Positions 191 to 28,193 of a DNA stretch of 40,328 nt are shown in pieces (within the stretch, counting starts at the first letter, position 1; each line of letters opens with the position of its first letter). The position numbers and the translations under genes were made by a program. Source of the DNA: a virus (Duplodnaviria > Caudoviricetes). The notes beneath the pieces were generated by a model. It was not told where the DNA came from. It did no database searches and saw only the letters and a program-made list of their open reading frames with translations. The stretch is from positions 1 to 40,328 of the IMG/VR virus record IMGVR_UViG_3300032225_000583; one strand, given 5' to 3'.

Positions 191-1063
191 TTATCCAATC
201 ACTATAACTGCATAACCTAAACCGCCTGCTCCACCTGAAATATTTAATCCGCTAGTTTGATTTGACGCACCACCACCTGCACCTAAGTTTGCAGTACCAG
301 CAGTTCCATTACCTGTTGTAGCTCCTGCTCCGCCGCCACCAGCAGCACCACCAGCGTATGCATTTCCATTACCAGCACCACCACCACCACCTGCATAAAA
401 AATTGCAGTTCCGGTAATGCTATTTGATAAACCTGTTCCACCAGTACCAGCAGTAGAACCTGCAGCACCAGCACCGCCTCCGCCGCCAGGAATTGAAGAA
501 GCATTATTACCACTAGCACCAGCATTTCCTTGACTCAATTGTGATGCACCACCAGTGCCAGCAAAATATACGCCAAATGCTCCACCGCCACCTGAACCAC
601 CTGTTAAACCAGAAGGAGATTGACCAGAACCACCACCTCCACCGCCTATTGCAATATAATTATCATTTAATGATGATGATACGCCATTTCTTCCACATTG
701 AGCATAAGCATTACCAGATGATGAAACGGCGCCACCTGCTCCTCCTGCTCCAACTGTTACTGTTAAAGTTCCAGTAGGTACAATTATGGATGTGCTGTAA
801 AGGATTCCTCCCGCACCACCACCACCACCACCACCACCGTTATTAGAATTAGAACCGCCTCCGCCACCGCCACCTACCAATAATAATTCACAAGTACCAG
901 CAGTACCAATTGTTATTGAACCACTACCTGTATATTTGATAATTGTTTTACCTGGGCGTGTGGTTGTATCAATAGTAGGTGATCCAGTAGTAGCAGAATA
1001 AGTTGCTTTACCAATTGGATAATAGTTACCGTTGATTGCTCCAGAAAATTTTGTAATTGTCAT
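191..1063 (-). CDS. Glycine-rich domain virion protein (putative fibre/adhesin)
   Basis: Many GGGGG/GGAGG runs, LLVGGGGGGG and YAGGGGG motifs; located in the tail module. Confidence 0.75.
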   Translation of the reverse strand: MTITKFSGAINGNYYPIGKATYSATTGSPTIDTTTRPGKTIIKYTGSGSITIGTAGTCELLLVGGGGGGGSNSNNGGGGGGGGAGGILYSTSIIVPTGTLTVTVGAGGAGGAVSSSGNAYAQCGRNGVSSSLNDNYIAIGGGGGGSGQSPSGLTGGSGGGGAFGVYFAGTGGASQLSQGNAGASGNNASSIPGGGGGAGAAGSTAGTGGTGLSNSITGTAIFYAGGGGGAGNGNAYAGGAAGGGGAGATTGNGTAGTANLGAGGGASNQTSGLNISGGAGGLGYAVIVIG

Positions 1064-10276: not shown

Positions 10277-10305
10277 TGTCCATCTCCCATTCTGTTTGTA
10301 GTTTC

Positions 10306-10391
10306 GTAGACCTCATATAGATTTGGGGATTTCTATATGGCTTCTACTCCTGGGGTTTAGTGTCACTCTAACGGACCAGTCGTCCCGTTAG
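10306..10391 (-). promoter_or_regulatory. Two-hairpin structured leader upstream of the scaffold gene
   Basis: CTAACGG/CCGTTAG stem and nested GTAGA..CATATAGA/TCTATATG..TCTAC stem. Confidence 0.55.
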
Positions 10392-10404
10392 CAGGCCTAG
10401 TTGT

Positions 10405-19993: not shown

Positions 19994-21856
19994 TTAGATG
20001 AACTGTGTATCCTTCTCAGCAAGTAGATCATCAATATTGACGACTACTCGTTTTTGTTTTTCATAACTTGATAGGAACGGATTATTCATATGATGCTTTG
20101 CATACTGTCCGTAGTTAAGCATCTCTCTTGCTCTAATCTCACAGAACCAAAGAGCCATTACCATATCGGTTTTACCCTTGGTGGTCGGAGACCAAGTTAT
20201 CAATTGCTCTATAAGAGCCTTGATGTTCTCAGTTTGATCACTAGGTAAATGTATTAAGTTATCTCGATGGTGCTTGCCATCAGCTAATTGCTTTGTACCA
20301 AATAGAGTTGACATAGATGCCACACCGAAACCAGAGTCCCATTTATTAGAACCGGTATGGTGTTCTTTAAGAGTTACACCGCGAGATGCTAAGTGCATCT
20401 TGATACCTTCGTCTTGGGTTAAGAAAGCTTGGAACGCGTTCTTCTCGACGATCCATTCACTAGGTTTGTAAAGATCCGTCCAGTCAAAAATGAGTTGCCT
20501 AATTTGTGCCGGAGTAGGTCTAGTAATCTTATGAGCGTCCACAATATAACGCTTGTGACTGACGCGATCAATAGCATAACAAATAACAGCAGTGTCACCA
20601 ACCATAGCAGGATCAAGGCCACAAATGAAAGTGAATCCATTAAGGTCTTTAGGATGACCTGGATAACCCGCATTGAGTACTCCTGACTTCCTCATACCAT
20701 CAATAGATCCTCTAACACATACCGGATCAAATATGGCGTCATCTGAAATATCTTGTTGCTGATAAATTAAAGCCCAGGTGGAAGCGTCCATAGATTGACG
20801 TTCGTTAAATAAGTTACGACCATTCCATCTTGGGTATAGGCCGTTCTCATTTTTTTGATCTTCACCTTGACCATCAAATGGTTGATCGGATGCTGGCCAT
20901 AATGTTTCCCATTTCTCGGGGGATTCATCTGTTTGTAAGAGCGCTGGCATAGCTAGGTACTTCCAAGGAACTAAACCGCCTGGATATCTATCGGGGTTCC
21001 GCAATTCTCTGTATAGATCAACGGATGCTACGCGGGTTCCAATTACAATCAACTTACCTGTTGGGTTAAGACGAGAGCGCACATCTTGGGTTAGCCACTT
21101 GATCTGACGTTCAAAGTCGTTGGCATTACTTAAAGTAACTGCGTCGTCGATGATAATCATATCTGCACGTTTACCGTAGATCTGACCACCAATACCGACT
21201 GCTTCTATATTGGGATCTTTCTCAGAGGATTCTCTAAGCTCATCACCGAAGGTAATACGGGTGGCTTGCCACGAAGCGGACTTGCTATTAAAACCTACGC
21301 CAGCAGCATAAGCCTGCTGCAGATTCTCATACATAGGATGAGTTAATCGTTGTTTGATGGCGTATAGAAAGTCTGCTGCAAGACGCTGGGTCTGAGAGAC
21401 GATCAAAACTCTAAAGTTAGGATTACGACATACCTGCCAGGTTACATAGTCAACGGTTATTGTAATTGACTTCGCGTGGTTTGGCGGGATGTTAATTAAA
21501 ATTCTGTTATCGGCTAGACCGGTTTCCCATTTCATAGCGGGGTGTAGCCAAGAAGGTTCCCGACCCTCAATTACATCTACCAGGTTTTGCTGGTGTGGGA
21601 AAGTCTTTTGATTTAGGAACCGCTCACGAAACTCAGCGAAGGAGATATCGTGAACATCACCAGAGGCGAAGACTTTGTCTTTTAAACCTAGGCGGGTGCG
21701 ATCTACTTTATCGGAGAATACTTTGTCGGTGCGACGATAGTACTCATAGGTCTTCATCGACTTACTGGCTGAACCGCAGGCCTGTTCGATAGTCATACCT
21801 TGCGCGACGCAACCTAGGATGATTCGCTTAGCTATATCTGCTGAATTTTCGGACAC
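19994..21856 (-). CDS. terL: Terminase large subunit with N-terminal HTH-like extension
   Basis: INIPPNHAKS (Walker A), IIIDD (Walker B), VIGTR, ICGLDPA nuclease Asp, C-terminal DMVMALWF. Confidence 0.92.
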   Translation of the reverse strand: MSENSADIAKRIILGCVAQGMTIEQACGSASKSMKTYEYYRRTDKVFSDKVDRTRLGLKDKVFASGDVHDISFAEFRERFLNQKTFPHQQNLVDVIEGREPSWLHPAMKWETGLADNRILINIPPNHAKSITITVDYVTWQVCRNPNFRVLIVSQTQRLAADFLYAIKQRLTHPMYENLQQAYAAGVGFNSKSASWQATRITFGDELRESSEKDPNIEAVGIGGQIYGKRADMIIIDDAVTLSNANDFERQIKWLTQDVRSRLNPTGKLIVIGTRVASVDLYRELRNPDRYPGGLVPWKYLAMPALLQTDESPEKWETLWPASDQPFDGQGEDQKNENGLYPRWNGRNLFNERQSMDASTWALIYQQQDISDDAIFDPVCVRGSIDGMRKSGVLNAGYPGHPKDLNGFTFICGLDPAMVGDTAVICYAIDRVSHKRYIVDAHKITRPTPAQIRQLIFDWTDLYKPSEWIVEKNAFQAFLTQDEGIKMHLASRGVTLKEHHTGSNKWDSGFGVASMSTLFGTKQLADGKHHRDNLIHLPSDQTENIKALIEQLITWSPTTKGKTDMVMALWFCEIRAREMLNYGQYAKHHMNNPFLSSYEKQKRVVVNIDDLLAEKDTQFI

Positions 21857-21871
21857 ACTTCTCCTGCCGTT

Positions 21872-21906
21872 TATATGTTAACCGGAGGGAATATATGATA
21901 ACCGGA
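21872..21906. repeat. Tandem 15-bp direct repeat TATATG(T/A)TAACCGGA at 20-bp spacing
   Basis: 21872-21886 and 21892-21906, one mismatch. Confidence 0.8.
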
Positions 21907-22149
21907 TTAGAGACCTATTACACCTGCCGCGAAGTGTATCTCGCTTTACGGGCTTGAGCGCCCGAGCGAGCTACAGCGAAGTGAGGGGTAAGTTGGTAAT
22001 CATCCCTTAGGGATGCTACTAGGAGCGAAGTCTTCGACGTAGCGACTTCTTAGGTCGTAAAACTCATAACAGTCCGTTTTACTCCCCTACTATATATAAG
22101 GCAGGAAATCTGATCGATTTCCCGCTTTTTGGTAAAAAACTTTATATTA

Positions 22150-22165
22150 TGTGACGTAAGTCACT
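22150..22165. promoter_or_regulatory. CRP/GlxR-like palindrome TGTGA-N6-TCACT
   Basis: TGTGACGTAAGTCACT, 9/10 match to TGTGA-N6-TCACA. Confidence 0.5.
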
Positions 22166-22606
22166 ATATATAGCTATATACGACCCAAAATATTGACTTT
22201 AGGAAAAATATTTATTTGGGGAGTATGTGGTGTGTGTCTTTGTTTTTTTAACATATGGGGTAGGGCTTTGCGCTGGTAAGCCTTCCGATTGAGCCTTATC
22301 CCTACGCTCAACCGCTTATAGTTCGCCTATTGGCTCACCTTTGGGGCTAGAATTAAAGGTTCGAGTTGCTACCCTTCTGGCGCATAGTTGGCTCATCTAC
22401 CTAACCGCTAACACCTATCGGCTCCCCCTAATTTAATATCTAACTCTCATCACCGCCTAACTCTCCACCGCTATCTAATCCACCGCCACCGGATCAAGCT
22501 CACCGCGCCACCGATTACGCCGGGCTAATCACTCACCCGCTCACCTACTCACCGGCGCAGCTATTGATCCCGGCCTATCGCCTACCATTCCCGGCGCTGC
22601 CTATTG

Positions 22607-22622
22607 TGTGACCTAACTCACC
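22607..22622. promoter_or_regulatory. CRP/GlxR-like site TGTGA-N6-TCACC
   Basis: TGTGACCTAACTCACC just upstream of the early -35. Confidence 0.45.
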
Positions 22623-22633
22623 CTATCCAATGC

Positions 22634-22663
22634 TTGATTAGATACGGTAGACACCCTTATTAT
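22634..22663 (+). promoter_or_regulatory. SigA-like early promoter
   Basis: TTGATT-N18-TATTAT upstream of the first plus-strand gene. Confidence 0.6.
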
Positions 22664-22707
22664 TTATCTAGTGAGCAGCAGCTCACCCTTAGAGATAGGA
22701 ATATCTA

Positions 22708-22851
22708 ATGAATAGAGCTAAGCAATACACCCGCCTAACCGACACCGTAACCGGTGAGCTTATTGTCAGCGCCGATCTAACGCCGGCAGCAGCTAAGCGG
22801 ATCATCAAGGAATACGCAAGATTTGGTTATGAATTAGCGGTGGCGATCTAA
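22708..22851 (+). CDS. 47-aa early protein (MNRAKQYTRLTDTVTGELIV...)
   Basis: ATAGGA RBS; TAATG overlap with the next gene. Confidence 0.75.
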   Translation: MNRAKQYTRLTDTVTGELIVSADLTPAAAKRIIKEYARFGYELAVAI

Positions 22852-23000
22852 TGCGCTCCCGGAGATATTACCTAACCCGGACAATTATCCGCTGCTTATT
22901 TTGGATCGGTATCGCCGCTTTATTATGGTTTATCAGCTCTAATCTATGGTGGACACCCGGCGGCTATTGCGTCGGTGATCTAGTTAGCTGCAGCGCTTAA
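22851..23000 (+). CDS. 49-aa early membrane microprotein
   Basis: Basic N-terminus, hydrophobic CLFWIGIAALLWFI, C-terminal C-x6-C. Confidence 0.75.
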   Translation: MRSRRYYLTRTIIRCLFWIGIAALLWFISSNLWWTPGGYCVGDLVSCSA

Positions 23001-23009
23001 TTGGTGGCG

Positions 23010-23090
23010 TACTATGCTAGCTTGCCGGTATACGGTAGGCTTGCGTAGTATCCTACTAGCAATAGCGGGAGAGAGTGAGCGAACGCTCAT
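23010..23090 (+). promoter_or_regulatory. Three consecutive RNA hairpins in an early intergenic region
   Basis: 23010-23050 long G-U-containing stem; 23051-23070 GCAA tetraloop; 23075-23090 GTGAGC/GCTCAT. Confidence 0.6.
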
Positions 23091-23114
23091 TTAACTATGG
23101 ATAGGAGAGAGAGT

Positions 23115-23249
23115 ATGAGTAATCAAGAAAGTAAGTCTATTATTTTTGCGTTAGAAAATTACGCACAATTATTAGAGAAAGAAAGATTATATGAAGCTAG
23201 AAATAAAATCTATAATCTTATTTATAAATTAGAAAGAGAGGGTAAGTAA
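23115..23249 (+). CDS. 44-aa early helical microprotein
   Basis: ATAGGAG RBS; MSNQESKSIIFALENY... Confidence 0.7.
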   Translation: MSNQESKSIIFALENYAQLLEKERLYEARNKIYNLIYKLEREGK

Positions 23250-23383
23250 TGGACCAAACCTTATGCGGTGAGTGCTTGATTCCAGTATCAGAGTGCGCTC
23301 ATAAATTATATCTATTAGATGAGTTAGAGAGAGACGCTAACCGTCTAATCCAATTAGCTAAGGAGAGGAAGGTAATGCAATGA
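23249..23383 (+). CDS. 44-aa CxxC-x6-CxH microprotein
   Basis: MDQTLCGECLIPVSECAH...; coupled start/stop. Confidence 0.7.
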   Translation: MDQTLCGECLIPVSECAHKLYLLDELERDANRLIQLAKERKVMQ

Positions 23384-23520
23384 AAACTATCTGCCAATTC
23401 TGCGGGTGGGAGATAACAAAACCAGAGTGGTATAACAGTTACGACCAGGCTTACGCTTGCGACGATTGCTTAATGGATCAAGCGATAGAGAAAGAGAAGG
23501 AGAGGGAGAGCGCAATATGA
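23380..23520 (+). CDS. 46-aa CxxC...CxxC zinc-finger microprotein
   Basis: MKTICQFCGW...ACDDCL; ATGA overlaps. Confidence 0.75.
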   Translation: MKTICQFCGWEITKPEWYNSYDQAYACDDCLMDQAIEKEKERESAI

Positions 23521-23687
23521 GTGAGCCACGCTATTTAGAGGGAGATGAGTTTGCTCTGAGTGGGGGTTACGAGGAGCTAATTAATTGCAATGAGTGTGAT
23601 GTTATGTTTGATCGAGTGGAATATCAATCTGATACCTGCTCAGAGTGCGAGGATAAGAGAGTAATGAGAGAGAAGGAGAGCAAGTGA
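23517..23687 (+). CDS. 56-aa acidic CxxC...CxxC microprotein
   Basis: CNEC...CSEC; start reassigned to ATG 23517. Confidence 0.75.
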   Translation: MSEPRYLEGDEFALSGGYEELINCNECDVMFDRVEYQSDTCSECEDKRVMREKESK

Positions 23688-23950
23688 GTAATGTATTAGA
23701 GCTACGCAATGGCGCATTAAAGAGAGTGATATTTTACGAGGTATCAGACGCTCAAAACTTGGCTATATGGGGCGGAGAAAGCCCGTCAGAGGCCTTAAAA
23801 TGGTACCGGAATAGCCCATTAGATAGTAAAATATGGGTGCAAGAGTGGCTTACTGATGACGAGGACGCGAGAGCGACTTCAGAGCAGATAGAGATCACTT
23901 CCATAGTACTATCTACCATTGCTAATTGTATGGAGAGATGGAGCAAGTGA
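23684..23950 (+). CDS. Early hypothetical protein
   Basis: AAGGAG RBS, GTGA overlap. Confidence 0.75.
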   Translation: MSNVLELRNGALKRVIFYEVSDAQNLAIWGGESPSEALKWYRNSPLDSKIWVQEWLTDDEDARATSEQIEITSIVLSTIANCMERWSK

Positions 23951-24165
23951 AAAATATACATAGAGTAAAAGGTGCTGCAGATCAAGCAGTTCGCCAGCGT
24001 AATTACCGACGAGCGAGGGAGAGAGCGTTGACTAGGTTAGCTAATGACTATCCAAATGTTTATCGCGCTTACTTGGAAGAGGAGAAGATGGCTGATGAAA
24101 AAATGGGTAAGAAATGGCTTGATATTGATGGCAACACTAAGTCTACTGATAGTAGGACAAGATAA
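23947..24165 (+). CDS. Basic helical early protein
   Basis: RQRNYRRARERALTRLA; GTG 23947 overlaps the previous stop. Confidence 0.7.
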   Translation: MKNIHRVKGAADQAVRQRNYRRARERALTRLANDYPNVYRAYLEEEKMADEKMGKKWLDIDGNTKSTDSRTR

Positions 24166-24517
24166 ATTATTTCCTCCACCGGTGGGCAGAGTGCCTGATG
24201 GTGTTATCTCAAACAGGAAGGCAACAAAAGATGAGAAAGATCGCAATAGAAAGCTCGCACAAGATTACGCTCAGGTTGGTTTCGGGTGGCAAGGAAGAGA
24301 GTGGGAGTGCCTACTCACCCTTTGGACCCGTGAGAGCAGGTTTGATAACTATGCGACCAACCAACGAGGTAGTTCAGCTTACGGAATTGCTCAACTGCTT
24401 GGAGAGAAAGATAGCAGAAGCGAATATCAAATCCTTAGAGGTCTTAAATACATATCTAAACGATACGGAACTCCCTGTAAAGCCAACAATTTCTTTTTAA
24501 AAAATAACCACTACTGA
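24095..24517 (+). CDS. Lytic transglycosylase (SLT/lysozyme-like) with N-terminal signal/anchor
   Basis: CLLTLWTRES (catalytic Glu), SSAYGIAQ, QILRGLKYISKRYG. Confidence 0.85.
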   Translation: MKKWVRNGLILMATLSLLIVGQDKLFPPPVGRVPDGVISNRKATKDEKDRNRKLAQDYAQVGFGWQGREWECLLTLWTRESRFDNYATNQRGSSAYGIAQLLGEKDSRSEYQILRGLKYISKRYGTPCKANNFFLKNNHY

Positions 24518-25116
24518 TGAAAATATTATTGGCTTGTGAAGAGAGTCAAGCAGTGACTAAAGAGTTTAGACTATTAGGTCACGAGGCATATTCTTGTGAC
24601 ATACTACCCACATCTGGCAATAATCCAGAGTGGCATTTACAGCAAGATGTAACCTCATTATTAAATAAAAAGTGGGATTTGATTATTGCTTTCCCACCTT
24701 GTACCCATCTAGCATCTTCTGGTGCAGCTTGGTTTGAACAAAAACGTAAAGATGGTAGGCAGCAAGAGGGTATAGATTTTTTTATGTTATTTACAAAATC
24801 TGATTGTCCTAAAATTGTGATTGAAAATCCTGTTGGCATTATGAGTAAAGTTTATCGTAAACCAGATCAAATAATACAGCCTTATATGTTTGGAGATCCT
24901 TATAGTAAAAGAACTTGTTTATGGTTAAAAGGTGTGCCAAAACTAATTGCAACTGATGAGGTTGAACCCGAGGAAAGGGTTTCTTTTTCTAGTGGAAGAA
25001 CTATGCCTAAGTGGTATGCTGATGCTTGGAAACTACCACCTAGTGAAAGATCTAAAATTAGATCTAAAACTTTTCCTGGTATAGCTAAAGCTATGGCTAA
25101 ACAATGGAGTATATGA
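24517..25116 (+). CDS. DNA cytosine-5 methyltransferase-like protein
   Basis: ILLACEESQ, AYSCD, AFPPC (catalytic PC), IENP motifs. Confidence 0.8.
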   Translation: MKILLACEESQAVTKEFRLLGHEAYSCDILPTSGNNPEWHLQQDVTSLLNKKWDLIIAFPPCTHLASSGAAWFEQKRKDGRQQEGIDFFMLFTKSDCPKIVIENPVGIMSKVYRKPDQIIQPYMFGDPYSKRTCLWLKGVPKLIATDEVEPEERVSFSSGRTMPKWYADAWKLPPSERSKIRSKTFPGIAKAMAKQWSI

Positions 25117-25128
25117 TACGATCTAACT

Positions 25129-25196
25129 CTTGACCGGTTAACAGTTTCTCCGGTCTCCTAGGGACAGCCTCGCCACCCTTCCTGGCGGGGCTTTTC
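25129..25196 (+). ncRNA. Candidate sRNA / 3' element ending in an intrinsic terminator
   Basis: TG-A-TACGAT at 25114-25122; GACCGG/CCGGTC hairpin; GCCTCGCCA/TGGCGGGGC-TTTT. Confidence 0.4.
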
Positions 25197-25202
25197 TATT
25201 TC
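25166..25202 (+). terminator. Rho-independent terminator of the early block
   Basis: GCCTCGCCA-CCCTTCC-TGGCGGGGC followed by TTTTCTATTT. Confidence 0.85.
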
Positions 25203-25210
25203 TAAAAGAC

Positions 25211-25241
25211 AAAAACCCCTACGGGATAGGAACCGTAAGGG
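25211..25241 (-). terminator. Rho-independent terminator of the replication block
   Basis: CCCTTACGG-TTCCTATC-CCGTAGGGG-TTTTT on the minus strand. Confidence 0.85.
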
Positions 25242-25280
25242 CTATTGCCAGCACTCAACTAGATATAGGATCTAGCCAGT
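25211..25280 (-). ncRNA. Candidate ~70-nt two-hairpin sRNA with UCCUAU loops
   Basis: Extended -10 TG-A-TATAAT (25295-25287), two stems each exposing UCCUAU, U-tract end. Confidence 0.55.
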
Positions 25281-25297
25281 AAGAAAATTATATCAGA

Positions 25298-25465
25298 TCA
25301 TTTGTCAGTTGTATAGAACCCTTTACCCTTAAATGTTATAGATGGGGCAGACCACAAGCGGGAGGTCAGCTCACTACAACAGACAGGCGTGTGTTCCATA
25401 CCCATAATAGGACGCTCAACGGAGATAACCCCGCTACATACATTACATTTGTATTCGTAGATCAG
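25298..25465 (-). CDS. FmdB-family zinc-ribbon protein (CTG start)
   Basis: IYEYKCNVC...PVCC...ITFKGKGFYTTD; GGAG 7 nt before CTG. Confidence 0.8.
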   Translation of the reverse strand: MIYEYKCNVCSGVISVERPIMGMEHTPVCCSELTSRLWSAPSITFKGKGFYTTDK

Positions 25466-25848
25466 AGCGATACTCCATCACTTACCTTGAGAAAACCTAC
25501 TAACTTGGTGCGACTAGATCTATTACCAAACTCAGTTGTGTTAGGTAGCCACTTATCTTCCCACGCAGGGGCTGGTAATTTGCTTAGATCAAATCCCCAG
25601 ATACCTTCCGGTGTTGCGTTGATATACCAAGGTGCGAGTGAGCGGATACCTGCCGCCTCAACTAATGCTTGATACTTCATCTCTTCAATAAGTAATTCAG
25701 GGTAGTGTGTCTTGCGGGATTTTAATTCTATAAACATCTTATGTTCTAGGGATACGCAATCCCAAGTGTCAAACTCTTCACTCTTCTCAAGGTCTGAGTA
25801 ATGAAACTCTTTTAAGTATTCAAATAACTCAGGCTCTTTTAATTCCAT
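25462..25848 (-). CDS. PD-(D/E)XK nuclease-like protein
   Basis: WDC...FIELKSR motif. Confidence 0.6.
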   Translation of the reverse strand: MELKEPELFEYLKEFHYSDLEKSEEFDTWDCVSLEHKMFIELKSRKTHYPELLIEEMKYQALVEAAGIRSLAPWYINATPEGIWGFDLSKLPAPAWEDKWLPNTTEFGNRSSRTKLVGFLKVSDGVSL

Positions 25849-26288
25849 TAAAAATACCTAGCCCATCTTTGTTTAGGTTCGGTAGGTTGATCAGTTCTAC
25901 GAGGTTTGCCGTCTGTATGTTTCCATTGACCGCCAGATGTAACTGCTTCCATAATCCAACCTGATGCCTTAAGACTTATTCCTGGTTCACTTTCAAGAAT
26001 ATAAGTTTGTATTTTTTTATATCCCATTTCTTTAGCTATACGAGCACAAGCTCCATACAATTTTGAACAAGCATTTTCACTACCATCTGTACATAGGCGG
26101 GAAACTTCTAAAGTAAAGCCATCATCAGATCCTCTAGCTACAGGTCTACCACATATAGCAATGCCTATGTAATCTACATCTTTTACCAAAGCAATACTAA
26201 ATTTATGCCCAACGCTAGGCTTGTGATGCCTATGCCATTGGATAACTATTTCATTAGCTTTCTTTAATGTAATCGGAACTATTTTCAT
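25848..26288 (-). CDS. XF1762-family protein (GNAT/Mom-like)
   Basis: HRHHKP, GRPVAR, LEVSRLCTDG, NACSKLYGA, GISLKASGW. Confidence 0.8.
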   Translation of the reverse strand: MKIVPITLKKANEIVIQWHRHHKPSVGHKFSIALVKDVDYIGIAICGRPVARGSDDGFTLEVSRLCTDGSENACSKLYGACARIAKEMGYKKIQTYILESEPGISLKASGWIMEAVTSGGQWKHTDGKPRRTDQPTEPKQRWARYF

Positions 26289-27037
26289 AATTGATTTATC
26301 CTAAAGTTAATCAAATCACAATATTCTGGACTTATTTCGCTACCTATATAATTGCGTTTAAGTTTTATTGAAGCCAAGGCGGTTGTTCCAGACCCAATGA
26401 ATGGGTCATAAACTAAATCTCCTTCATTACTCCAAGTAGTAATATGATCTGTTATTAAAAACTCTGGGAATACAGCCGGATGATTTGTTTTGTTTTGAGC
26501 AACAGCACAATCCCAAATATTATCTTTATACCTTTCTACATTTAAGATCATTGTCTTAGGTTTCCTAACCTTGCCACTACTAATTTGTTTCATAGTAGAT
26601 CTGTAAGTTTTACCACCTAATTTAGTAGGTTGCATAATAGGATTAAAGGTTTTAGGTTGCCCTTTAGATAGGACAAACATATATTCAAAGACATCAAAGT
26701 ATCTTTTAGTTTTTACTTTGGGCATAGGATTAGTCTTGCGCCAGATCATAGTGTCGTGCAGATTAAAGCCAGCATCTTTCAAACCAAGTGCCTGCCTAAA
26801 AGATGTGCCGGTTTCACTACCTTTTTCGGTAGCATCTCCTACTATCCACACCAATACACCGCCTTCTTTAGTGGTGCGATACAACTCTTTAGATGTAGAT
26901 TCAAAGTTAAATGAGTACCCGTTGTAAACCCTAAGTGAATCATAAGGCGGAGATGTAATGGTTAAGTCTATGGAATTATCATCCATACCTTTCATAGTTT
27001 CTAAACAATCTTCATTGTAGATTTTGTTTAACTCCAA
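26285..27037 (-). CDS. N4-cytosine/N6-adenine DNA methyltransferase, beta class
   Basis: TSPPY catalytic motif precedes HPAVFP and DPFIGSGTT. Confidence 0.92.
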   Translation of the reverse strand: MELNKIYNEDCLETMKGMDDNSIDLTITSPPYDSLRVYNGYSFNFESTSKELYRTTKEGGVLVWIVGDATEKGSETGTSFRQALGLKDAGFNLHDTMIWRKTNPMPKVKTKRYFDVFEYMFVLSKGQPKTFNPIMQPTKLGGKTYRSTMKQISSGKVRKPKTMILNVERYKDNIWDCAVAQNKTNHPAVFPEFLITDHITTWSNEGDLVYDPFIGSGTTALASIKLKRNYIGSEISPEYCDLINFRINQL

Positions 27038-27663
27038 GGTGTATCACCGCCAAGTAGATCTTGTAGCTTACGCATAGCATTAGTGCATCTACGATCAGCA
27101 GTAGAGACAGCCACCTCTAGGTATTGTGCTATCTGATTAAGTGTCCAAGCATCGTGGTATCTAAGCTCTAATATCTTGGCTTCATCAACATCTAACTTCT
27201 CATACGCTTTCTTAATATCAAGGAGGAGAGCAATTAGATTACCACTTTCAGCAGGGGCTGATGGTTTCTTTGGTGTGCCATCGTTGATCATATCTTGTGC
27301 CTGTTGTAAGACAGTGCCGTGTAATACCGATTGAATTACAAAGGGTAGTAGCTGTGCGATAGTGGTGGTCTCATAAAAGGATTCGTCGCTAGTGTGATAG
27401 CCAGCCTTACTTGCCTTCTCCTTGCGGGCGTAGCGTTCTGCCATACGCCTCATTTGGTAGGCAATACGCTTCTCATTACGCTGGCGTTTATTAAGATCAG
27501 GTTCATTTAACTGCTCAAGGAAATGTGCGTTCTTAGATAGAGACCAGGCGTAGCACTCTTGTATTACATCTTTCTTATCTACCCACCCTTTAAACCTGCG
27601 GACTATAACTGTGGCTACGCTAGGCACTAACTCATAGAAAGTCGGGTGTAAATCTTCACTCAT
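27028..27663 (-). CDS. Sigma-factor-like protein (sigma70 region 4 HTH)
   Basis: LDVDEAKILELRYHDAWTLNQIAQYLEVAVSTADRRCTNAMRKL. Confidence 0.75.
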   Translation of the reverse strand: MSEDLHPTFYELVPSVATVIVRRFKGWVDKKDVIQECYAWSLSKNAHFLEQLNEPDLNKRQRNEKRIAYQMRRMAERYARKEKASKAGYHTSDESFYETTTIAQLLPFVIQSVLHGTVLQQAQDMINDGTPKKPSAPAESGNLIALLLDIKKAYEKLDVDEAKILELRYHDAWTLNQIAQYLEVAVSTADRRCTNAMRKLQDLLGGDTPWS

Positions 27664-28193
27664 TGGTTTTCCCATAAAACTTTTGGTTGTTCATTATGGT
27701 TAAAAGTCATAATAACGCTATGAAAATTAGATCCTTCTCTTTTTTTCCAAGTTTTATCATAATAATTTATACGTCTAGTTGGAATATAAATATTAGGATA
27801 ACCATATTGTTGATAAAGTGAATGACGTTTTACCCCACCCAAAGAATCAAGTGGAAGAATAAGAACGGTACGTTTATTAGATTTGTATACTTTTTCAATA
27901 ACTGCATCTTTAATACTGAAAGGTGGATTAGTTATTAAATAATCGTATTCGTAATTATTAGTTAAATAATCTGTAATATTATATATTACTTTATAATTTT
28001 TATTAATTAAAGTTTTAACAAATAAACTATCATTTGAATCGAATGGACACATAACAGTTGAACCATTTATTGGATTTAACAATTCAATACATTTGTCTAC
28101 CGTTGGTTGATCTGTATACCATTCATCACTATAATTATTATTTGTAATATTATTAATAATTTTTTGATTAGTCACTTGGCCACTTGTTTTCAA
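27660..28193 (-). CDS. Small N6-adenine methyltransferase-like protein
   Basis: DEWYT, CPFD, ITNPPFS motifs; very AT-rich; start may be GTG 28175. Confidence 0.75.
   Translation of the reverse strand: MKTSGQVTNQKIINNITNNNYSDEWYTDQPTVDKCIELLNPINGSTVMCPFDSNDSLFVKTLINKNYKVIYNITDYLTNNYEYDYLITNPPFSIKDAVIEKVYKSNKRTVLILPLDSLGGVKRHSLYQQYGYPNIYIPTRRINYYDKTWKKREGSNFHSVIMTFNHNEQPKVLWENQ

Follow-up and report, generated by a model that had tools for sequence, protein, structure and literature searches.

What does the short RNA gene predicted at the convergent junction of the virus genome IMGVR_UViG_3300032225_000583 (Duplodnaviria; Caudoviricetes) do? The window analyzed here is the whole record, a complete virus genome of 40,328 bp with direct terminal repeats and 41% G+C, which belongs to a lake-water phage with a probable host among the actinobacteria. 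Its minus (late) strand codes for WhiB, a sigma factor, DnaB, primase, RusA, terminase, portal and capsid proteins. The plus strand carries a short block of small open reading frames (ORFs) of no known function together with a transglycosylase and a methyltransferase, which gene size, content and position suggest to be early. Between the two blocks an initial annotation, made from the sequence alone, had placed a candidate small RNA (sRNA) with two UCCUAU loops and proposed that it acts in trans against the Shine-Dalgarno (SD) sequences of early genes.

The core of that proposal is supported by comparison with related phages, namely by the spacing of the promoter, covarying stems, an invariant loop, a minimal form of the element and the matching of loops with ribosome-binding sites (RBSs) across lineages, but the two-loop form is not general. 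As judged from these comparisons, the RNA probably represses the phage's own early genes that bear a matching RBS label (here termed tag, with the core GATAGGA) through anti-RBS pairing in trans.

An optional RNA cassette in close relatives

The extended -10 and the ~70-nt hairpin and terminator features that the initial annotation had described on the minus strand were all recovered at their places (Table 1). The 71-nt RNA has a predicted folding energy of -25.9 kcal/mol (z -2.65), or -32.8 kcal/mol (z -4.63) with its tail. G-U pairs and the U-tract favor the minus strand as the RNA strand; a plus-strand RNA with AGGA loops was ruled out, as G-U pairs, promoter and U-tract fit the minus strand only. 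In a promoter scan of positions 21800-26000 the cassette site was among the top three (10/12 matches) and the sole one of 12 sites with TG before the -10; by itself the scan is weak because 12 sites were found vs. 8.7 expected.

Close relatives (lineage A) were collected with a pattern that leaves the loop free. Of 38 viral loci, 36 are real, two of these being pieces of one contig; L084 and L085 were dropped as chance matches. Because the linker between the hairpins served as the search anchor, its invariance in this set is by construction. The terminator loop reads UCCUAUC in 36/36 loci, variation being limited to one base gained or lost just 5' of it. The motif TGnTAnnnT lies 28–31 nt upstream of GAGTGC in 35/36 loci (the exception is truncated), and several differing -10 sequences occur among the loci that keep motif and spacing. 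As a separate observation, L011, L092, L241 and others have the promoter motif TGTGCTACA doubled ~20 bp apart around an ACATTT...AAATGT inverted repeat upstream of the RNA, possibly an operator or a tandem promoter.

Stem covariation, which the initial annotation had suggested looking for in related phages, was found for both stems in an alignment of 23 of the 25 distinct sequences (two near-duplicates omitted). The terminator stem is 100% paired in 21 distinct rows, with 2 pairs changed on both sides, compared with 28–68% in slid controls, and its covariation score exceeds 500/500 shuffles. Hairpin 1 forms in 23/23 rows with several pair types per position and many compensatory changes. The claim of two UCCUAU loops holds for the terminator loop but not for hairpin 1 in general: in the predicted fold of the window the first U is paired, leaving the loop CCUAU, and UCCUAU is present in 5/23 rows only (loop CCUAU 5/23, CCGAU 5/23, other 13/23). 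In L254 the CCUAU loop stands on a different stem, and the two-loop form thus recurs.

The cassette is optional. Among 80 loci fetched by a neighboring gene the junction is visible in 65, and the cassette is present at 15/65 and absent at 50/65, the absent type running from the late gene end directly to a terminator common to both. One contig from a public run jumps from window position 25194 to 25302, omitting the cassette. Nine further loci have a form of ~35 nt with promoter and loop hairpin and without hairpin 1 (z -5.1; L246 and L248 were dropped from this set as chance matches); since hairpin 1 is variable and dispensable and these loci retain only promoter and loop hairpin, the loop is the part that is kept. 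The loops of neighboring terminators vary among relatives, unlike that of the cassette. On the transglycosylase tree the presence/absence label requires 7 changes, at least 3 of them forced, and is clustered (4/500 shuffles as low), so that gains or losses recurred and the rows are not independent.

Matching of loops and early-gene tags

The 8-nt matches to early RBSs claimed by the initial annotation, GATAGGAA at 22694 and GGATAGGA at 23099, were confirmed, each 7–8 nt before an ATG, with the qualification that the second site (AUAGGAG) contains an ordinary AGGAG. When loop pairing was computed over 62 start regions of the window, these two early leaders ranked best (-9.7 and -9.4 kcal/mol; next -7.0). 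They lie 2.1 and 2.5 kb from the RNA, with no opposite-strand overlap of the kind that defines cis-antisense RNAs. GATAGGA is found in 0/52 late-strand start regions, although avoidance of the tag in late genes is not significant (GATAGGA 0 observed vs. 0.95 expected, ATAGGA 2 vs. 4.2); the statement that late genes mostly use AAGGAG was overstated, about 7/52 of these regions doing so. Both early leaders also contain a GUGAGC-N4-GCUCAY hairpin of 6 bp (22671-22686 and 23075-23090, plus strand) 8–9 nt before the tag, and similar hairpins occur in the leaders of relatives.

Throughout lineage A, GATAGGA stands ~5–10 nt before the starts of promoter-proximal plus-strand genes. The 37 ORFs led by it form 27 BLASTP families, and none of the 27 GATAGGA-led ORFs scanned matched Pfam. 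Among loci with a whole early region (17 carriers of the cassette and 15 non-carriers, after 4 with unseen junction and 1 near-duplicate were dropped), early-region GATAGGA occurs in 14/17 carriers vs. 6/15 non-carriers (Fisher p 0.027, a value that overstates the evidence because the rows are related and the cassette label is clustered on the transglycosylase tree). Considering all 7-mers ending in AGGA at early starts, GATAGGA is the commonest in carriers (25 sites in 17 phages) and sixth in non-carriers (8 in 15). The single-letter variants GATCGGAG, GATAAGGA and AATAGGAG occur in homologous leaders. An ATAGGA that precedes 'MRKIAIES' in many relatives was rejected as a tag, its ORF being a second frame inside the transglycosylase gene; this frame of ~100 aa (window 24198-24500, plus strand) is open over 96–128 aa in many relatives and may be a by-product of codon use.

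Loose loop scans returned at least 120 and at least 119 loci, most of which were dropped as chance after filtering. Among the matches listed was one distant actinophage (L156/L169) with a CGG-UUCCUAUC-CCG hairpin at the same junction on the other strand, the founding member of what is called here lineage B; since the RNA gene has the opposite orientation in this lineage, the RNA is not cis-antisense. The 27 relatives of L156/L169 have promoter-plus-hairpin RNAs with differing loops (four have none), a linker-like UUGAGC/UUGUAGC-GGCAA, and RNAs that carry two different loops. Second loops ACCCCAA and UCCGUG are seen in L443 (~10300-10400) and in the second hairpin of L433. In L156 (~570-680, minus strand) and L169 (6649-6666) a tRNA-like stretch, its T-loop reading GTTCGACTC, adjoins the RNA gene back to back; ARAGORN made no call there and Rfam gave an 18-nt T-arm match only.

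Loops and tags were compared in the 19 lineage B phages whose upstream sequence spans 4.3 kb or more; left out were 6 that were too short, 1 near-duplicate and 1 that lacked downstream DNA. TGGAAGG-led early starts occur in 6/6 carriers of a CCUUCCA loop vs. 1/13 others, and GAAAGGACTA-led starts in 7/9 carriers of an UAGUCCUUUC loop vs. 0/10 others and 0/32 lineage A regions. Perfect loop-tag matches reach 15, 14 and 13 nt and end at or just before the start codon; randomization of the flanks gave 0, 1 and 1 of 4000. The expectation that loops vary together with early RBSs is borne out in lineage B by these two pairs, but not by UCCUAUC/GATAGGA (2/5).

Table 1. Features of the RNA cassette, its junction and its predicted targets in the window.
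Feature	Position	Strand	Basis and remarks
Extended -10 promoter motif TGATATAAT (TGnTAnnnT)	25287..25295	-	Sequence, promoter scan, relatives
Weak -35, TATACA	25315-25310	-	Within end of upstream gene
Predicted small RNA, ~70 nt	25211..25281	-	Fold and family alignment; start probably 25281/25280, from -10 spacing
Hairpin 1, GGCUAGAU-CCUAU-AUCUAGUU	25252..25281	-	Fold, alignment; bulged stem, variable loop, dispensable
Conserved linker GAGUGCUGGCAA	25245..25256	-	GAGUG closes hairpin 1; GGCAA can pair with UUGUC tail
Terminator loop UUCCUAUC, predicted seed, complement GAUAGGAA	25225..25232	-	Invariant in relatives
Intrinsic terminator stem and U-tract	25211..25243	-	Arms 25241-25233 / 25224-25216, U-tract 25215-25211; 11 pairs
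Optional cassette, approximate limits	25195..25301		~107 bp; presence/absence at junctions
Terminator of early (+) strand	25166..25196	+	Common to phages with and without cassette
Last late-strand gene, small zinc-ribbon-like ORF	25298..25465	-	Adjoins promoter upstream, start not fixed; Zn_ribbon_8 weak, E 0.0008, below Pfam cut-off
Predicted target 1, GATAGGAA	22694..22701	+	RBS of first early gene (ORF 22708-22851, 47 aa, no family); predicted in small hairpin, loop GGAA
Predicted target 2, GGATAGGA	23099..23106	+	RBS of first gene after second early leader (ORF 23115-23249, 44 aa, no family); predicted single-stranded

Related systems and the setting of the element

The closest parallel comes from Cluster K mycobacteriophages, in which the start-associated sequence (SAS) GGGATAGGAGCCC precedes 11–19 non-structural genes, an RNA or protein partner being left open in the account of Pope et al. 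(PMC3203893). Four K1 phages have a single reverse copy of it (PMC3203893). The function of SAS has been open since 2011 and is termed ill-defined in 2024 and unverified in 2025 in the respective accounts (PMC3203893; PMC11373665; PMC12699233). In Adephagia (positions 20,000-59,646) we counted 16 sites in forward orientation and a single reverse one, at ~58,682-58,694. The latter falls between genes 92 and 93, the interval in which late transcription reportedly begins (PMC11373665). On the plus strand the reverse copy folds as the unpaired loop CCUCCUAUCC of GCGCGG...CCGCGC on a long stem. The stretch is matched by 131 phage records, and of five further records fetched Anaya, Peanam and SgtBeansprout keep CCUCCUAUCC unpaired with changed outer stems.

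The likeness to the window family lies in the core GGGATAGGA, which stands at the RBS of non-structural genes without mutual relationship, in the placement a few bases before starts, and in a single reverse copy that is remote from gene starts and sits in a hairpin loop with CGG...CCG as closing pairs, the part played here by the loop at 25225-25232. By the 13-bp criterion for SAS (GGGATAGGAGCCC with at most 2 mismatches) the window sites AGAGATAGGAATAT and ATGGATAGGAGAGA fall outside, sharing 7–9 nt of the core only; SAS has 13 nt and 11–19 copies, whereas the window system has 7–8 nt and 1–3 copies. No U-tract accompanies the K1 hairpin in the stretch that was folded, and this hairpin may represent the 5' portion of the late transcript; outside the loop there is no sequence likeness to it. 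About half of the SAS sites have 17-bp ESAS inverted repeats upstream, compared with the 6-bp hairpin in the early leaders of the window.

Antisense RNAs of phages and sRNAs with C-rich loops are both familiar types. The c4 RNA of temperate proteobacterial phages is a small processed RNA that pairs in trans via short exposed stretches near an RBS and controls one antirepressor operon. It is represented in phages P1/P7 (Rfam RF01695; PMC2864571), and the element differs from it in having no Rfam match and in a loop that addresses several unrelated early genes. Phage RNAs that block translation or destabilize phage mRNAs are described from P22 (sar), lambda (OOP and aQ) and BTP1 (STnc6030) (PMC12197685); those are antisense with one named target each, whereas the window RNA lies at the distance given above from its predicted targets, with a 7–9 nt match. 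6C RNA likewise uses pyrimidine-rich hairpin loops as pairing seeds in an actinobacterial setting, its C-rich loops being reported to pair with mRNA without chaperones (PMC6486639), but it is chromosomal, has runs of six C and addresses host targets. Rfam gave 0 matches in the window (the best near the element, E 0.49 and 21 of 50 bits, is below the gathering threshold; c4 RF01695 and 6C were included), and the annotated phage collection gave none to the element.

By sequence the element has the marks of a trans-acting base-pairing sRNA, i.e., its own promoter and intrinsic terminator, a conserved structure and, with the exceptions listed in the next section, a conserved and exposed seed whose complement occurs in target start regions. 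Searches of the open-access literature, supplements aside, yielded no paper on this RNA, nor any case of one short loop in a swappable cassette set against a private RBS tag that many unrelated early genes bear. The present case contributes the minimal form, three pairs of loop and tag, and a loop core identical to the reverse copy of K phages.

The window terminase is nearest (46%) to the cultured Planktophila phages F5 and E7, which are reported to have a WhiB, sigma factor and glycosyltransferase set as well (PMC10202952); this likeness and the common gene set make a host within the Nanopelagicales likely. Neither F5 nor E7 has TCCTATC at its junction, and GATAGGA is missing from their early regions. 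Scanning of 48 window ORFs revealed neither an integrase nor a repressor, and a genome scan with the phage WhiB gave 2 matches, both weak and unrelated. Grouped around the junction (window 24517-28193) are three genes resembling those of DNA methyltransferases and one for a Mom-like modification function. The interval from the methyltransferase stop to the plus-strand terminator holds a further hairpin, GACCGG...CCGGTC (window 25120-25165), and GACCGG-like sequence recurs at this place in relatives. Two other identities of the element were considered: a tRNA or T-loop mimic was ruled out (no tRNA was called, the loop lacks T-loop purines and indels are tolerated), and for a CIRCE/HrcA half-site suggested by GAGTGCT no partner half-site was seen by eye at 9-bp spacing.

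Proposed function of the cassette RNA and alternative readings

In the mechanism that we favor, the host housekeeping sigma factor would transcribe the cassette from its extended -10. The product would be a stable small RNA whose fixed loop pairs in trans, over 7–9 nt and without a chaperone, with GAUAGGA tags and competes with the 16S tail (8 nt paired vs. ~4–5 for an ordinary anti-SD), and translation of the tagged early genes would be lowered as infection proceeds. The tag would act as an address label, in that genes change and the label stays.

Several observations weigh against self-repression of tagged early genes, besides the relatedness of the rows noted above. The carriers L105, L240 and L090 (3/17) lack early-region GATAGGA and 6/15 non-carriers have it; the cassette is missing at 50 of the 65 junctions and is therefore not essential; and any UCCU loop partly matches many RBSs. 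In lineage B, UCCUAUC loops meet GATAGGA starts in 2/5 carriers only (p 0.27; the loop-tag p values are descriptive, because the motif pairs were picked after the data were seen), the AGUCCGUCCUUUCG loop has self matches of 7–8 nt only, no better than randomized flanks, and L441 and L440 are without a long match. TGGAAGG leads ORFs in 10/32 lineage A regions, where no CCUUCCA loop was seen. Among K phages, DarthP and SirPhilip have the same stem with other loops, and UCCUAUC is absent from the right-hand 4.2–4.4 kb of Kratio, Aminay, TM4 and Pixie, which represent four other subclusters, despite 3–5 GATAGGA sites there.

Some of these exceptions are what would be expected if the main role were competition, the RNA silencing the first genes of a later-arriving related phage with self-repression as a side effect. 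An optional cassette that is patchy on the tree, carriers without their own tag and non-carriers with one, single-letter tag variants in homologous leaders and two different loops in lineage B RNAs all fit such a role, as does the precedent of STnc6030 of BTP1, described as an antisense superinfection exclusion RNA with escape mutants (PMC12197685). Tags are commoner in carriers, however, and the longest matches are to the phage's own genes, the opposite of what self-escape predicts; competition is compatible with self-repression, and as the main role we consider it unlikely. It is quite improbable that the loop chiefly targets host mRNAs with GAUAGGA at their start or broadly mimics the 16S tail, the phage match being secondary. 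UCCUAUC does recur in distant phages and is one letter from UCCUUUC, which lineage B loops display and which is probably the actinobacterial 16S end, but the loops change together with the phage tags. Further, the 13-bp tag of K phages is reported by Pope et al. to have no exact counterpart in M. smegmatis (PMC3203893).

A protein might instead recognize both tag and loop, with the RNA as its decoy or co-factor rather than a base-pairing repressor. The closing pairs CGG...CCG are identical in lineage A, L156 and the K1 phages, and both K-phage tag papers leave a protein open; a decoy would display the tag itself and not its complement, though, and in lineage B loop length and flanks vary freely while complementarity reaches 15 nt, which makes this reading very improbable. 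The convergent junction and the U-tract would suit an extra terminator derived from an inverted RBS copy, without trans function. Yet non-carriers manage with the common terminator alone, even the minimal form retains the promoter motif, and the loop is fixed while the stem changes and neighboring terminator loops vary; we give this explanation scarcely any weight. Least probable of all appears a pairing that activates, or that acts on transcription, e.g., by opening the leader hairpin in which target 1 is predicted to lie, as the AGGA core itself would be covered by the pairing and target 2 is predicted open.

Beyond the repression of tagged early genes by their own phage, a wider system may be envisaged, which we put forward tentatively and as somewhat less probable than not. 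Actinophages would share an address-label system consisting of a private extended RBS on early genes and a mobile hairpin RNA of 35–170 nt with a mirror loop, loops and labels being swapped between lineages and serving both self-timing and the silencing of label-sharing rivals. Cluster K SAS would then be the same system and its reverse copy a late-made repressor.

The predicted RNA described here offers phage start-site tags a concrete partner that can be put to the test. Although the lake phages have not been cultured, the matching Adephagia loop is testable in M. smegmatis. If the reading is true, phages of the most abundant freshwater bacteria would use a translational early-to-late switch in which one very small RNA governs many unrelated genes, and a natural orthogonal RBS/repressor pair of ~35 nt would be usable in actinobacteria.
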